Below, one piece after another: positions 42,277-52,006 of a DNA stretch of 64,000 nt. The notes under the pieces were generated by a model. The model did no database searches and was not told the origin of the DNA. It saw only the letters and a program-made list of their open reading frames with translations. The stretch covers positions 2,394-66,393 of the forward strand of contig JAHJSA010000010.1 of assembly GCA_018830645.1 (NCBI GenBank), in the 5' to 3' direction. The position numbers were made by a program, and so were the translations under genes. Positions within the stretch are counted from its first letter, which is position 1. Each line of letters begins with the position of its first letter. Source of the stretch: Actinomycetota bacterium (GTDB lineage Bacteria > Actinomycetota > Thermoleophilia > RBG-16-64-13).

Positions 42277-43449
42277 ATGGAAGCAATAGAACTCATCGAG
42301 CTGATCGGCCGCGGCGAGGACAGTCGCACTCAGTTCAAGCAGACCGTCACGAACCCCGAATCGGTGGCGGGCGATCTGGTGGCCTTCTCCAACAGCAGAG
42401 GCGGGAGAATGCTCATTGGGGTCAGCGATCACGGGGTGGTCGTGGGACTCTCGGCTGATGACGTCCGCCGGATAAACCAGCTGATCTCCAACACGGCAAC
42501 CAATCTCGTGCGACCCTCGATCAATCCCATTACTGAGAACATCTCTGTCGGAGATGCGTTGGTCATGGTTGTAGACGTTCACGAGGGTATCTCCAAGCCA
42601 TACGCCGACAACACCGGGGTGTTCTGGGTGAAGTCAGGAGCGGACAAGCGCAGGGTCACTTCGCGCGAAGAGATCCAGCGGATGCTTCAGAGCGCCGACC
42701 TCGTGTACGCGGATGAGGTTCCGGTCGGGGGAACCTCGATCGAAGACATCGACTCAGAGCACTTCAATACCTTCTTCGCGAAGCAGTTTGGCGAACCGCT
42801 CGACGATGCGCTCGCGAAGGCCGGTCTTTCGCTCAGCCGATTGTTGAACAATCTCGGGCTGGCGCGAGAGGAGACCTTGAATCTTGCCGGCCTCTTGATC
42901 TTCGGTCGCCAGCCACAGCGCCACCGTCCTGCCTTTGTGGTCAAAGCGGTCTCGTTCGTCGGCGATGATCCCGCCGGCGACAAGTACCGAGACAGCCAGG
43001 ACATCGACGGGTGCCTGCGTGACCTCCACAGGGGGACCATGTCCTTCCTCACGCGCAACCTGAGGCGGCTGCAGGGCGAGAAGGGAATCAACACGCAAGG
43101 AGATCTGGAAGTTCCTGTTGCGGCTCTCGAGGAACTGGTCGTCAACATGCTGCTCCACCGTGACTACTTCATCTCAGCGCCGTGGCGTGTCCTGCTGTTC
43201 GACAATCGCATCGAGTTGATCAGCCCCGGTTCTCTGCCGAACAATCTGACCGTCGAAAACATCCGCAGTGGTGTGTCGGTTATGCGCAACCCTATGCTCG
43301 CTTCGTACGCCACCAAGGGGGACGAACTGCCGTATCGGGGCATCGGCACGGGCATCCGGCGGGCGTTGGCGGCCGTCCCAGAACTGGAACTGGAATCCGA
43401 CCAGGAGCGGAACCTATTCACGGCCAGAATACCGAGGCGCCCGGCGTGA
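42277..43449 (+). CDS. COG2865-type protein (AlbA_2/Schlafen-like DNA-binding domain + HATPase_c_4), paralog 1 (no C-terminal wHTH)
   Basis: LIELIGRGEDSRTQFKQTVTNPESVAGDLVAFSNSRGGRMLIGVSDHGVVVGL (AlbA_2), then ...VVNMLLHRDYF...ELISPGSLPNNL (HATPase_c_4-like). Confidence 0.7.
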   Translation: MEAIELIELIGRGEDSRTQFKQTVTNPESVAGDLVAFSNSRGGRMLIGVSDHGVVVGLSADDVRRINQLISNTATNLVRPSINPITENISVGDALVMVVDVHEGISKPYADNTGVFWVKSGADKRRVTSREEIQRMLQSADLVYADEVPVGGTSIEDIDSEHFNTFFAKQFGEPLDDALAKAGLSLSRLLNNLGLAREETLNLAGLLIFGRQPQRHRPAFVVKAVSFVGDDPAGDKYRDSQDIDGCLRDLHRGTMSFLTRNLRRLQGEKGINTQGDLEVPVAALEELVVNMLLHRDYFISAPWRVLLFDNRIELISPGSLPNNLTVENIRSGVSVMRNPMLASYATKGDELPYRGIGTGIRRALAAVPELELESDQERNLFTARIPRRPA

Positions 43450-43516
43450 CAACGCCCTCCGGTGCGGCCAAGAAGAAGCTCATCGAAGTCGCCCGCCGCG
43501 TGCCGGGCACGCCCCC

Positions 43517-49111: not shown

Positions 49112-49123
49112 GAAGGTTGCACT

Positions 49124-52006
49124 GTGAAGAAGAAACTCATCGAAGTCGCCCTCCCGCTGGTGGCCATCAACAAGGCCTCCGCCCGGGAGAAGTCCATCCG
49201 CCACGGCCACCCGAGCACCCTACACCTCTGGTGGGCGCGGCGACCCTTGGCGGCGGCGCGGGCGGTCATCTTCGCGCAGATGGTCGACGATCCCTCGGCG
49301 CATCCCGACCTCTTCCCCACCGAGAAGGCCCAGGAGAAGGAGCGGCAGCGCCTCTTCCACATCATCGAGGACCTCGTCCTCTGGGAGAACACCACCAACG
49401 AGACCGTGTTGCAGCAGGCGCGCGACGAGATATGGCAGAGCTGGCGCTACACCTGCGCTGAGAACGCCGACCACCCCCGGGCCAAGGAGCTCTTCGACCG
49501 CTACAAGCTGCCCGCCTTTCACGATCCCTTTGCCGGTGGCGGAGCGCTGCCCCTGGAGGCACAGCGGCTGGGACTCGAGGCCTACGCCAGCGATCTGAAT
49601 CCGGTGGCGGTCCTGATCAACAAGGCGATGATCGAGATCCCGCCCAAGTTCGCGGGGCGCCCGCCGGTGAACCCCGAAGCACGGCGGGAGCAATCGCTGA
49701 TCGCCAAGCCCTGGCGGGGCGCGCAGGGGCTGGCCGAGGACGTGCGCTACTACGGGCGGTGGATGCGCGACGAGGCCGAGAAGCGCATCGGCCACCTCTA
49801 CCCCAAGATCGAGATCACGACGGAGATGGCCAAGGAGCGGCCGGACCTCAAGCCCCTCGTGGGGCGCAGGCTGACCGTCATCGCCTGGCTCTGGGCGCGC
49901 ACGGTGAAGAGCCCCAACCCGGCCTTCGCGCAGGTGGATGTGCCGCTGATCTCCACGTTCATGCTCTCCACCAAGGCGGGCAAGGAGGCCTACGTCGAGC
50001 CGGTGATCGAGGATGGCGGCTACCGCTTCACGGTGAAGAGGGGGAAGCCGAGGGATGCCGAGACGGCGAAGATGGGCACGAAGTTGGCACGGGGAGCGAA
50101 CTTCCGATGCGTGATGTCAGGTACGCCGATTGCGGGTGATTACATCAAGGCCGAGGGCAAGGCCGGGCGTATGGGCGCGCGGCTGATGGCCATCGTCGCC
50201 GAGGGCGAACGCGGACGGGTCTATCTCGCGCCGACTTCCGAGCATGAGGCGGCTGCGCGCAAGGCGAAGCCCGAGTGGAAGCCGGATGTTGAGTTCTTTC
50301 AGCAGGCGCTCGGCTTCCGCGTCGGCAACTATGGCATGACGAGGTGGAGCGATCTCTTCACCCCCCGCCAGCTCGTGGCACTCACAACGTTCTCCGACCT
50401 GGCGCAGGAAGCGCGCGAGCGAGTGAGGCACGATGCGCAAGCCGCGGCTACGCGCGATGGTGGCAAGTCTTTGCCCGACGTTGGCGCCGCCGCGTCGGCG
50501 TACGCTGATGCAGTGAGCATGTACCTGTCCATCGCCCTCAGCCGGTTGGCGGACATGTGCAACGCACTCTGCGGATGGGAGATCTCCAAGACACAAGTGC
50601 GGCATTTGTTCACACGTCAGGCCGTTCCGATGCTGTGGGATTTCGCGGAGAACAATGTGCTCGGCGAGGCAGCGGGCGCCTACCTAGTGAGTCTCTCGAA
50701 CATGGCCAAGGCGATAGATCAGCTGCCAGCATCTAGGCCGGGAATGGTGAAACAGGCCGACGCCCAGGGTCAGGCCATCAGCCAGGATAAGCTCGTTTCC
50801 ACCGACCCGCCGTACTACGACAATGTTGGCTACGCCGACCTATCGGACTTCTTCTACGTCTGGTTGCGCCGGTCGCTGAAGCCGGTCTTTCCTGACCTCT
50901 TCGCGACACTTGCTGTGCCCAAAGGCGACGAACTCGTGGCTACGCCGGGCCGTCACGGCGGCAAGGAAAGGGCCGAGACCTTCTTTCTGGAAGGAATGAC
51001 GCAGGCGATGCAGCGGCTCGCCGAGCGGGCGCACCCGGCCTTCCCGGTCACCATCTACTACGCCTTCAAGCAGTCCGAGAGCGATGGCGATGAAGGTACG
51101 ACGAATACAGGGTGGGACACCTTCTTGGCCGCAGTCATCGAGGCTGGTTTCGCCACCACCGGGACCTGGCCGATGCGAACGGAGTTGGCCAACCGCATCC
51201 GCGGCATGGACTCCAACGCCCTTGCCTCCAGCATCGTCCTCGTCTGTCGCCCGCGCCCGGCCAATGCACCGACCGCCACACGTCGCGAGTTTACGGCTGC
51301 ACTCAAGGCGGAGCTTCCCGTAGCCCTCGCGCACCTGCAGCGGGGCAATATTGCCCCGGTGGACCTACAGCAGGCGGCCATCGGCCCGGGCATGGCGGTC
51401 TACACCCGCTACGCAAAGGTGCTCGACGCCGAGGGCAAGGCCCTCACCGTGCGCGAGGCGCTGGCGCTGATCAACCAGACCCTCGATGAGGCGCTGGCCG
51501 AGCAGGAGGGCGACTTCGACGCCGACAGCCGGTGGGCGCTCGCCTGGTTCGAACAGTCCGGCTTCGCAGAGGGCGAGTATGGGGTGGCCGAGACGCTCTC
51601 CAAGGCCAAGAACACCAGTGTGGCCGGGATGGTTGACGCGGGCATCCTGGCATCGAGCCGCGGCAAAGTGCGGCTGCTCCGCCCCGATGAGCTGCCCGCC
51701 GACTGGGACCCGACCACCGACCCTCGCCTGACGGCGTGGGAGATGGTGCACCATCTCATCCGGGCGCTCGAATCTGGGGGAGAGAGCCCCGCGGCCGCGC
51801 TGGTTGGCAAGCTCGGCACGAAGGCCGAAATTGCCCGCGAACTCTGCTATCGGCTCTACACCCTCTGCGAGCGCAAGAAGCGGGCTGCGGAGGCCTTGTC
51901 ATACAATGGGCTCGTGCAGAGCTGGCCGGAGATCGCGCGGTTGGCACGGGACGGGGGTGCGGCTGTGATGGAGCAGGGCGCGTTGTTCGACAGGGCCGAG
52001 GAGTAG
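49124..52006 (+). CDS. DUF1156-domain N6-adenine DNA methyltransferase (DISARM DrmMI-like / type IIG-like methyltransferase)
   Basis: N-terminus [48 protein letters not shown] (typical DUF1156 start); the catalytic [22 protein letters not shown] motif (D/N-PP-Y of N6-adenine MTases); 960 aa. Confidence 0.8.

Follow-up and report, generated by a model that had tools for sequence, protein, structure and literature searches.

Defense cargo between hmaA and hmaB of an actinobacterial Hma locus was probably stacked by recombination between related loci

The DNA analyzed here, a stretch of 64,000 nucleotides (nt) from an Actinomycetota bacterium (hereafter the window), carries 11 kb of accessory defense genes, arranged as six cargo units, between the genes hmaA and hmaB of the Hma defense system. 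Shortened copies of these two flanking genes stand between cargo units, always as an hmaB 5′ head and an hmaA 3′ tail followed by cargo, with head and tail joined at a GC-rich microhomology. We interpret the copies as scars and consider it probable that they, like the stacking of the cargo, arose by unequal or illegitimate crossovers between different Hma loci. A second finding concerns short DNA modules at the cargo boundaries, whose sequence co-varies with the recognition helix of a winged helix-turn-helix (wHTH) in one family of cargo proteins.

Scars at the cargo boundaries

All large open reading frames (ORFs) between 34.5 and 52 kb of the window lie on the + strand, and the locus reads as follows (HK, histidine kinase-type domain; Slfn, Schlafen).

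34537–38112, +: hmaA, Snf2 helicase with C-terminal NOV_C nuclease, left anchor (PADLOC E = 0; Pfam)
38109–38117, +: ATGACCGCG, what is left of a deleted DUF4062-HK-wHTH gene (its first three codons), with an ATG that overlaps the hmaA stop
38201–39910, +: cargo 1 (ATPase1), AAA_15/AAA_21 (OLD/ABC-type) ATPase, 569 aa (Pfam)
39995–42033, +: cargo 2, Septu, with ptuA at 39995–41374 and ptuB at 41371–42033 (PADLOC)
42277–43449, +: cargo 3 (Slfn1), short AlbA_2/Schlafen-HATPase_c_4 protein, 390 aa, without wHTH (Pfam)
43446–43520, +: scar 1, 24-codon relay ORF (GTG43446–TGA43520), hmaB start (core 43470–43497) and hmaA-tail remnant
43517–45076, +: cargo 4 (D4062HK), DUF4062 (putative TIR-like NADase)-HATPase_c_4-wHTH protein, 519 aa, GACCGA type (Pfam)
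45153–45243, +: scar 2a, hmaB codons 1–30 (95% to the native gene, with 33 nt of upstream sequence from 45120)
45244–45481, +: scar 2b, hmaA 3′ end that lacks 225 nt in frame; the start of cargo 5 overlaps its stop
45478–47154, +: cargo 5 (Slfn3), Schlafen(AlbA_2)-HATPase_c_4-wHTH protein, 558 aa (Pfam)
47243–47398, +: scar 3, 51-codon relay ORF (GTG47243–TGA47398), hmaB codons 1–47 (97%) and the last ~26 nt of hmaA, joined at GGCGCGGGCG
47395–49059, +: cargo 6 (Slfn4), second Schlafen-HATPase_c_4-wHTH protein, 554 aa (Pfam, BLASTP)
49124–52006, +: hmaB, DUF1156 N6-adenine methyltransferase, right anchor (PADLOC E = 0; Pfam)

The hmaB 5′ fragments at 43470–43497, 45153–45243 and 47243–47383 share 93–97% of their nucleotides with the gene from 49124 onward. 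Identity amounts to 26 of 28 positions in the first (against 49127–49154), 118 of 124 in the second (45120–45243 against 49091–49214, which takes in 33 nt of the hmaB upstream region) and 139 of 144 in the third (47240–47383 against 49121–49264). Fragments of the hmaA 3′ end lie at two gene boundaries, 45244–45482 and 47374–47399. The longer consists of two blocks, 45244–45312 (88% to 37650–37718) and 45312–45482 (84% to 37943–38113), and because both share base 45312 it has lost 225 nt (75 codons) in frame. The shorter corresponds to the last 26 nt of hmaA and matches 45457–45482 at 25 of 26 positions. An earlier note, made from the letters of this DNA, had described duplicated pieces of a methyltransferase gene start and of a helicase gene end, the latter with an internal deletion, and had placed one junction on a microhomology; the nucleotide alignments confirm all of this, and the junction at ~47380 falls on GGCGCGGGCG, which is common to hmaB codons 44–48 and the hmaA tail.

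The scars read as short relay ORFs. That of scar 1 starts within the Slfn1 stop and ends on the ATG of cargo 4; in scar 2 an ORF of 39 codons (GTG45153–TGA45272) overlaps a 72-codon hmaA-tail ORF (45263–45481), whose stop overlaps the next GTG; and the stop of scar 3 overlaps GTG47395, the start of cargo 6. The stop/start overlaps reported in the note are thus real, but the overlapping stop comes at every scar from the hmaA tail and not from the methyltransferase fragment as had been supposed. Because the hmaA tail brings this stop with it, newcomer cargo would stay translationally coupled via the relay ORF. The exact repeat runs left by the scars measure 47, 39 and 32 bp.

Integrity of the junctions

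The window derives from a single MEGAHIT-type contig (k141_128120) of a metagenome-assembled genome (MAG), and an assembly chimera, made of strain variants of a single hotspot set in a row, might in principle mimic such an array. We regard this as extremely improbable. The junction microhomologies of 9–10 nt are far below k = 141, and scar 1 occurs also in two related loci, L087 and L142, which come from other samples. In addition, Logan assemblies of two other runs are 100% identical to the window over 45174–47290 (SRR6514730) and 45406–47290 (SRR18052864), covering scar 2 and Slfn3 (cargo 5), and both contigs break off 31 nt past the final mismatch between repeat copies, the very point at which a k = 31 graph has to branch. 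The junctions are real and no product of the assembly. A look-up of exact proteins matched hmaB and Slfn4 to the source contig only and found Slfn3 also on a pair of short Logan contigs, both cut off at the repeat, with no direct evidence of a deletion variant.

Related loci

A scan of species-representative genomes with HmaB yielded 79 related loci (67–86% identity) from many phyla, numbered here with the prefix L, and hmaA lies upstream of hmaB in 67 of them. The two genes are 12–54 bp apart, often with an ATGA overlap, in 11 of the 67 and are separated by 0.5–9.9 kb in the remaining 56. These inserts hold at least 80 cargo clusters, among them GmrSD, AAA_15+DUF3226, AAA_14-DUF4143, YhcG nuclease, Septu and the ATPase1 family.

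Scars recur in this collection. In an extended set of 159 related loci, hmaB 5′ fragments occur in nine others and hmaA 3′ fragments in five others, and the isolated hmaB heads in the nine break mostly at codons 35–57, with one at codon 100. L142 reads ...GCGCGGGCG joined directly to GAGACGCGAAGATGA and then a DUF4062 gene, which is the microhomology of window scar 3 with different cargo. In L025 hmaB codon ~37 is joined to an hmaA tail ahead of a DUF4062 gene, in L135 hmaB codon 100 is joined to ATGA ahead of a Schlafen gene, and L024 and L113 break at the same GGCGGCGGCGCGG stretch. Recurrent scars and an interval that ranges from 12 bp to >9 kb among the 67 loci bear out the cassette-accretion hotspot with recombination scars that the earlier note had envisaged.

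Two close relatives, L087 and the Thermoleophilia MAG locus L167, have two cargo units as opposed to six in the window, which from 42108/42112 onward is 93–94% identical to both. The order in L087 is hmaA, module, Slfn1, scar 1, DUF4062 gene (D4062HK), modules and intact hmaB, with 93% nucleotide identity to the window over 42108–44865, and the window differs from it by two insertions: 38113–42107 directly after the hmaA stop, and a block composed of hmaA tail, Slfn3, hmaB head joined to hmaA tail, and Slfn4, inserted at hmaB codon ~30. In L167 the order is hmaA, D4062HK, modules, Slfn1 and hmaB. There the hmaB start overlaps the Slfn1 stop, the exact sequence is kept in scar 1 of the window, and what is a scar in the window runs on as intact hmaB; L142 holds a 47-codon version of this scar. 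The hmaA stop of L167 and L087 overlaps GTGACCGCCAAGCTGCG..., which is either the start or a remnant of a DUF4062-HK-wHTH gene. Arrangement and copy number vary among relatives, as the note had expected, so the locus has no single fixed arrangement.

The HATPase_c_4 family is the commonest cargo of the collection, occurring in 16 loci, and is single-copy everywhere outside the window; a four-paralog machine is therefore not indicated. One could still propose a new multi-paralog defense system in which the four COG2865-type proteins act together with the Snf2 helicase and the DUF1156 methyltransferase, given that the genes are co-directional and closely spaced and show several stop/start overlaps. 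We consider this very unlikely: besides the single copies in the 16 loci, 11 loci are devoid of any cargo, the interval holds at least 80 unrelated cargo families, the close relatives have two of the four genes, and published work regards genes of this kind as accessory effectors embedded in the locus (PMC12839542, PMC11232893).

In L002, L007, L013, L022, L025, L027, L031, L041, L046 and L064, the stops of many unrelated cargo genes overlap the hmaB start (CATGAC...), mirroring the hmaA/hmaB overlap of cargo-free loci; cargo thus slots into the ATGA junction and remains translationally coupled on either side. Other rearranged loci were also seen: L006 has two full hmaB genes in series (3541–6429 and 10001–12934) with hmaC between them, L071 has partial hmaB copies (4446–8744) and L162 an internally deleted hmaA (2758–3714).

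Origin of the fragments and mode of stacking

Of 171 positions in the distal hmaA-tail fragment, 27 differ from the resident hmaA. The proportions of synonymous (pS) and nonsynonymous (pN) differences are 0.47 and 0.07, respectively, and the fragment therefore diverged under purifying selection in a working gene rather than as a decaying local duplicate. Its identity is 92% to the hmaA 3′ ends of L087 and L167 compared with 84% to the resident gene, and the resident hmaA 3′ end itself has an identity of 88% to L087, below the 93% of the remaining shared locus. Either the units came from loci with an L087/L167-type hmaA allele, or the resident hmaA later received a new 3′ end along with the ATPase1/Septu insert; both routes require recombination between diverged Hma loci.

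A tandem duplication in place, copying a unit of helicase tail, COG2865 gene and methyltransferase head, with rapid divergence of the paralogs afterward, would leave the same hmaB-head/hmaA-tail junction, and it would agree with the near identity of the two hmaA-tail remnants (25 of 26) and with hmaB heads that are 95–97% identical to the resident gene. We nevertheless find it improbable. The hmaA-tail fragment, with a pN/pS of ~0.15, matches the L087/L167 allele better than the resident one, and the DUF4062 gene differs in architecture from the short Slfn1. Slfn3 and Slfn4 share only 65% protein identity (BLASTP), and each is as close or closer to proteins from other phyla, Slfn3 to its L040 ortholog (Chloroflexi, 70%) and Slfn4 to its L078 ortholog (Acidobacteriota, 68%); the present sampling already points to placements in different clades with non-Actinobacterial sisters. 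Along the two genes nucleotide identity is 55–85%, it falls to ~30% in the spacers behind them, which are unrelated, and it stands at 97% in the hmaB heads that follow. Because their mutual identity of 65% leaves them as close to orthologs in other phyla, Slfn3 and Slfn4 appear from their sequences to have been acquired separately and not duplicated in place.

In the crossover model, which we favor, the hmaB 5′ part of one Hma locus would pair with the hmaA 3′ end of a second, which might be a sister copy, incoming DNA of a relative or a circularized segment. Pairing would proceed through short GC-rich microhomologies of 9–10 nt, such as GGCGCGGGCG, within conserved coding sequence, and each event would add a unit made of hmaA tail, cargo, intergenic promoter/operator module and hmaB head. 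Two loci with different cargo would thereby give a product with both cargos in series and a full hmaB regenerated; by an alternative route, a circle formed from the segment between those points could integrate by a single crossover. The head/tail topology is a signature of unequal crossover or circle integration and fits the window scars as well as L025, L135 and L142. The data show the scars with their topology and microhomology, the recurrence of this junction type in other genomes, the simpler arrangements of close relatives and foreign-allele signatures in the fragments; from there we infer the crossover mechanism, the order of events and the role of the relay ORFs in expression.

The hmaB 5′ region retains 86–93% nucleotide identity across phyla, which would also favor ordinary homologous exchange of cargo. 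In this respect the locus resembles the minimal mobile elements of Neisseria, cassettes that are exchanged by homologous recombination in conserved flanking genes: differing cargo lies between the same two conserved genes, the flanks are conserved (86–93% for the hmaB 5′ region), and there is no dedicated recombinase. It differs in that the window cargo is stacked as well as swapped, that head/tail scars of the flanks remain, and that the flanks are themselves a defense system. Exact repeats of 32–47 bp are long enough for RecA-dependent recombination to delete Slfn4 or Slfn3 alone, or both genes together. The direct repeats thus offer an obvious route of cargo loss, so one locus could sample different effector sets.

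Several observations weigh against stacking by crossovers between loci. Donor loci were not recognized among the 79 genomes, where the fragments are nearer to the genes of this lineage than to any sampled locus beyond the close relatives. Divergence within scar 2 is uneven, 5% in the hmaB head as against 7–16% in the hmaA tail, so mosaic donors or later gene conversion are needed. Some cargo boundaries, those of ATPase1 and Septu, have neither hmaB nor hmaA scar, and these units must have entered by another route, for example by homologous exchange in the flanks or between modules. The array is represented by a single full-length contig, with no read-level or long-read sign of ongoing rearrangement in the population. 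Finally, because HmaC is missing (see below), the host Hma system may be incomplete.

Defense islands are known to gather genes, and the molecular route is rarely visible; the scars in the window show one. Two conserved genes of a widely transferred system would supply both homology and GC-rich microhomologies, through which cargo of different donors could be stacked in register and coupled. The papers that named Hma, described its insertion hotspot and reported embedded Schlafen genes (PMC8565338, PMC11232893 and PMC12839542, respectively) make no mention of partial hmaA/hmaB duplications, recombination or microhomology junctions, promoters, direct repeats or intergenic repeat modules. Head/tail scars at conserved microhomologies as evidence of cargo stacking appear to be new, as do the extreme six-unit state in an HmaC-less Hma locus and the wHTH/operator pairing described next.

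DNA modules and winged-helix proteins

Four intergenic elements of 46 nt lie at cargo boundaries, starting at 38119, 39917, 42123 and 45095, each built of three AATCnnnnGAy units at offsets 0, +11 and +32; a fifth is degenerate.

38119–38164, +: module 1, ATCCGA type, orphan; units AATCATCyGAC/T at 38122, 38133 and 38154
39917–39962, +: module 2, ATCCGA type, orphan; 89% to the module behind the ATCCGA-type gene of L167
42123–42168, +: module 3, GTCAGA type, orphan
45095–45140, +: module 4, GACCGA type, cognate of cargo 4
49075–49108, +: degenerate partial module upstream of hmaB, in which the third unit, GGAATCGACCGAT, alone is intact

The bare pattern AATC-N7-AATC-N17-AATC occurs four times in the window, each time on the + strand and at a module, as compared with 0.00 expected from shuffles. 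The units are alike within an element and different between elements, and this concerted identity argues for sequence-specific binding. The window D4062HK is of the GACCGA type, matching module 4 and the partial module before hmaB, and modules 1 and 2 (ATCCGA) and 3 (GTCAGA) have no cognate protein in the window. In L167 an ATCCGA-type gene and its module directly follow hmaA, and the window retains the module and the first three codons of that gene (38109–38117). We read the orphan modules, three here and up to six elsewhere, as a fossil record of earlier cargo turnover.

Homologs of D4062HK in the 159 loci carry the same association. A module starts within 80 nt of the stop codon in 81 of 86, typically at −1 to +7 nt; ~14 unit types are found, and many loci have arrays of 2–7 modules of differing type. 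Across 125 distinct modules the AATC is invariant, the triplet that follows is variable and the 10-nt spacer is unconserved. When 63 non-identical proteins were compared in pairs, those with the same unit type had identities of 0.71 at the C terminus and 0.83 at the N terminus, and those with different unit types 0.49 and 0.80; this difference was reached in none of 2000 label permutations. The 25 alignment columns most informative on unit type all fall within residues 454–511, with residue 482 the best. In an AF2 model residues 450–507 form a confident winged helix (pLDDT 74–91), whose recognition helix spans residues 478–490. Unit and helix sequence are paired, for example, as ATCCGA with VVRDTAH, GTCCGA with VVKDTAH, TTCCGA with VTYDTAN, GACCGA with IANDTAG and GTCAGA with VTRDTAx. 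The covariation of unit core and recognition helix in DUF4062-kinase-wHTH genes is apparently new, and neither the pSlfn nor the Swarozyc or Hma literature that we consulted mentions a cognate DNA module. Co-inheritance alone could yield the correlation, because module and gene 3′ end are physically linked.

We give roughly even chances to the proposal that the kinase-wHTH effectors within Hma loci bind DNA at specific sequences, each of them at an operator of its own. In the DUF4062 family this putative operator would be a 43-bp module with three AATCnnnCGAT units (0/+11/+32) on one helix face, an assignment that could go either way. The module begins at the stop codon of its gene and precedes the next gene, usually hmaB. 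Unit core and recognition helix might, as readily as not, have diversified jointly into at least 8, possibly 14, orthogonal pairs. If the module doubled as a regulated promoter, its occupancy would be linked to how hmaB or downstream cargo is expressed, or to the resting state of the NADase/RNase effector. The wHTH/operator pairing, if confirmed, would give a very common architecture both a role in DNA binding and a recognition code, kinase-HTH fusions making up 19% of bacterial Schlafens.

The position of all four modules at cargo boundaries, and the arrays of 2–7 modules in other loci, would also suit a programmed site-specific cassette system of the integron or shufflon kind with the modules as recombination sites. 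This we hold to be very improbable, for no integrase or recombinase was found in 34–52 kb, the junctions of all three scars fall on microhomologies within coding sequence and not on modules, and module type follows the wHTH of the gene directly upstream, as fits a protein-binding site and not an att site.

A module may also double as a regulated promoter. In pho-box promoters two 11-bp repeats lie 10 bp upstream of a −10-like element, a geometry that module 1 resembles. Module 1 holds the only sigma-70-like match in 34–53 kb, CTGACA-17-TAGAAT, where 2.9 are expected by chance; the match is no more than suggestive of a candidate promoter, and the spacer of the modules is unconserved. Structured RNA was considered for the modules and rejected, since Rfam gives tRNA-Sec alone and folding z-scores range from +1.2 to −0.9.

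The Schlafen-kinase-wHTH genes may be organized similarly. Repeats of 11-nt period (GCAAT/TTGCA-type) lie downstream in 4–5 of 6 such loci, which suggests that Schlafen-type wHTH proteins likewise have private DNA sites. The repeats were seen 3′ of the genes in L006, L039, L040, L044 and L078, as GACGCAAT four times in L040, GTAATTGCACC three times in L044 and GGTTGCAA in L006 and L039, and the spacers behind Slfn3 and Slfn4 in the window show weak traces of them.

Scanning IMG/VR with the module pattern gave nine matches, six of which are a coding Pro-rich repeat and three module-like: L170 (2394–2435), L171 (704–745) and L174 (451–492). Of these viral triples one is GTCCGA three times, one is TTCCGA/TTCCGA/ATCCGA in a contig of 29% GC and one is mixed. 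No Hma, DUF4062 or wHTH homolog was found near the three, which could be host-derived DNA, chance survivors or decoys.

Cargo genes

The earlier note had seen an array at 42277–52006 of four COG2865 paralogs with AlbA_2, HATPase_c_4 and wHTH domains. This description suits Slfn3 and Slfn4, but its second paralog has DUF4062 and its first lacks the wHTH; cargo, moreover, already starts at 38113, with an ABC-type ATPase and Septu (ptuAB) also between helicase and methyltransferase. By their domains the four genes represent three kinds of cargo: one short Schlafen-HK, one DUF4062-HK-wHTH and a pair of Schlafen-HK-wHTH alleles. Together with the 65% identity of Slfn3 and Slfn4, this leaves the idea of one family multiplied in place unsupported.

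Orthologs of ATPase1 (69–72% identity) occupy the same interval in L003, L011 and L024. Septu was identified by PtuA, an ABC-type ATPase (E = 3e-146), and PtuB, an HNH-type nuclease (E = 2e-40), with a gene overlap of 4 nt; it is found in the same interval in L013 and L031, and also in Halomonas (PMC11232893). Just 3′ of ptuB, at 42031–42106, a perfect 12-nt inverted repeat, AATGAGCCATAG and CTATGGCTCATT 30 nt apart, is accompanied by a further copy of GAGCCATAG. Compared with L087 and L167, this is where the ATPase1+Septu insert ends on its right side; the repeat could be a terminator or REP-like element.

Slfn1 is 98% identical in amino acids to the L087 protein. Active sites were read off the translations with the Schlafen motif E-x4-(E/D)-x-K (10.1101/2025.07.24.666596). 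EDEYLEFK of cargo 5 and EDEHLEFK of cargo 6 both fit as E-x4-E-x-K, and cargo 5 in addition matches PDB 3LMM (E = 4e-20). In Slfn1 the site reads EDSRTQFK, in which Q replaces the second acidic residue, and because E-x4-Q-x-K departs in this way from the pSlfn motif, Slfn1 may be inactive or work differently.

In cargo 4 the DUF4062 domain (Pfam E = 1e-18) aligns to the KpSwz structure (PDB 10wc, E = 1e-5 to 1.5e-6), and Glu45, invariant in 60 homologs, aligns with one Glu of KpSwz. The Pfam match of the wHTH is weak (HTH_DeoR, E = 0.009). The AF2 model, built from 60 sequences, has pLDDT 74–91 over residues 440–510, with helices at 450–462, 467–474 and 478–490 and strands at 494–497 and 504–507, and in this prediction the C terminus forms a winged helix (H1-H2-H3 plus β-hairpin wing). 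The DUF4062-HK-wHTH fusion has at least 1,438 homologs.

The cargo resembles two described groups, pSlfn and Swarozyc, the latter being the DUF4062 TIR-like NADase defense proteins (10.64898/2026.05.01.722283), in its N-terminal effectors (AlbA_2/Schlafen with E-x4-E-x-K in cargo 5 and 6, DUF4062 in cargo 4) and in its defense-island location. In the part of the pSlfn preprint that was consulted (10.1101/2025.07.24.666596), the HisKinase-HTH class is not the class tested experimentally. The DUF4062 literature that was searched makes no mention of HATPase, histidine-kinase, HTH or DNA-binding.

System identity and genomic setting

The product of hmaA matches PADLOC HmaA at E = 0, aligned over positions 2–1190 of 1191 aa, with the Pfam domains SNF2-rel_dom, Helicase_C and NOV_C (a C-terminal PD-(D/E)XK nuclease), and the product of hmaB matches PADLOC HmaB at E = 0 and Pfam DUF1156 at E = 2e-31. 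From these matches, the region is the cargo bay of an Hma locus, a type-1 DUF499-centered BREX-related defense system. Hma was named in 2021 and defined via its association with Septu (PMC8565338); an insertion hotspot of defense genes between hmaA and hmaBC was described in Halomonas in 2024, with insertions in 66.5% of loci (PMC11232893); and in 2026 Schlafen-histidine-kinase-wHTH genes were described from inside the BREX and BREX-related loci of at least 1,017 taxa (PMC12839542). Because the Hma system, the hotspot and the embedded genes are already known, the suggestion of the earlier note that no system of this kind had been described falls.

The note had also compared the frame to DrmD and DrmMI of DISARM. 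The co-occurrence of a Snf2-family helicase with an N6-adenine methyltransferase in the locus, together with DrmD matches, does recall DISARM, but HmaA and HmaB are far better matches (E = 0 vs 1e-118 for DrmD). The DrmA and DrmD matches in PADLOC are secondary matches of the HmaA helicase core, PADLOC gave no DrmMI match for the methyltransferase, and PADLOC and Pfam scans of all large ORFs in 34–62 kb found no DrmB or DrmC. With secondary DrmD matches and no DrmA-, DrmB- or DrmC-like partner, membership in DISARM was rejected, and the frame is Hma.

The window locus agrees with published Hma loci in its two anchors and in having Septu, ABC ATPases and Schlafen-HK-wHTH genes between hmaA and hmaB. 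It differs in its six cargo units, which at 11 kb form the largest interval of 68 loci measured, and in the absence of HmaC (DUF499 ATPase), which lies 3′ of hmaB in 71 of the 79 related loci. Searching with the HmaC of L011 (tblastn) gave a best window match of only E = 0.11, and the gene calls for the other 7 kb of the 71.7-kb source contig, which belongs to an Actinobacteria MAG, include no DUF499 gene. L167 likewise has no nearby HmaC, and hmaC adjoins only 80.7% of hmaA genes (PMC11232893), so HmaC-less loci are known.

Behind hmaB lies one further feature.

52010–52465, +: frameshifted AAA_15-type ATPase remnant, not HmaC (PADLOC on ORFs after hmaB)

Over 52010–53900 the N-terminal 33 aa of this ATPase are intact and the P-loop is in another frame; the arrangement of hmaB followed by the remnant is seen also in Logan contig L082 (SRR6514730). 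Rfam places tRNA-Sec at 31144–31240, beside which an island of low GC (~0.60 vs ~0.70) starts, and no integrase was seen from tRNA-Sec to hmaA. The island also holds a Gp49/HTH toxin-antitoxin-like gene, an Stk2-like kinase (53957–55288), an Abi_C protein (55532–56347), a P4 cII-like gene (58717–59358) and, on the minus strand, PD-Lambda-2 B/C homologs (59267–61655).

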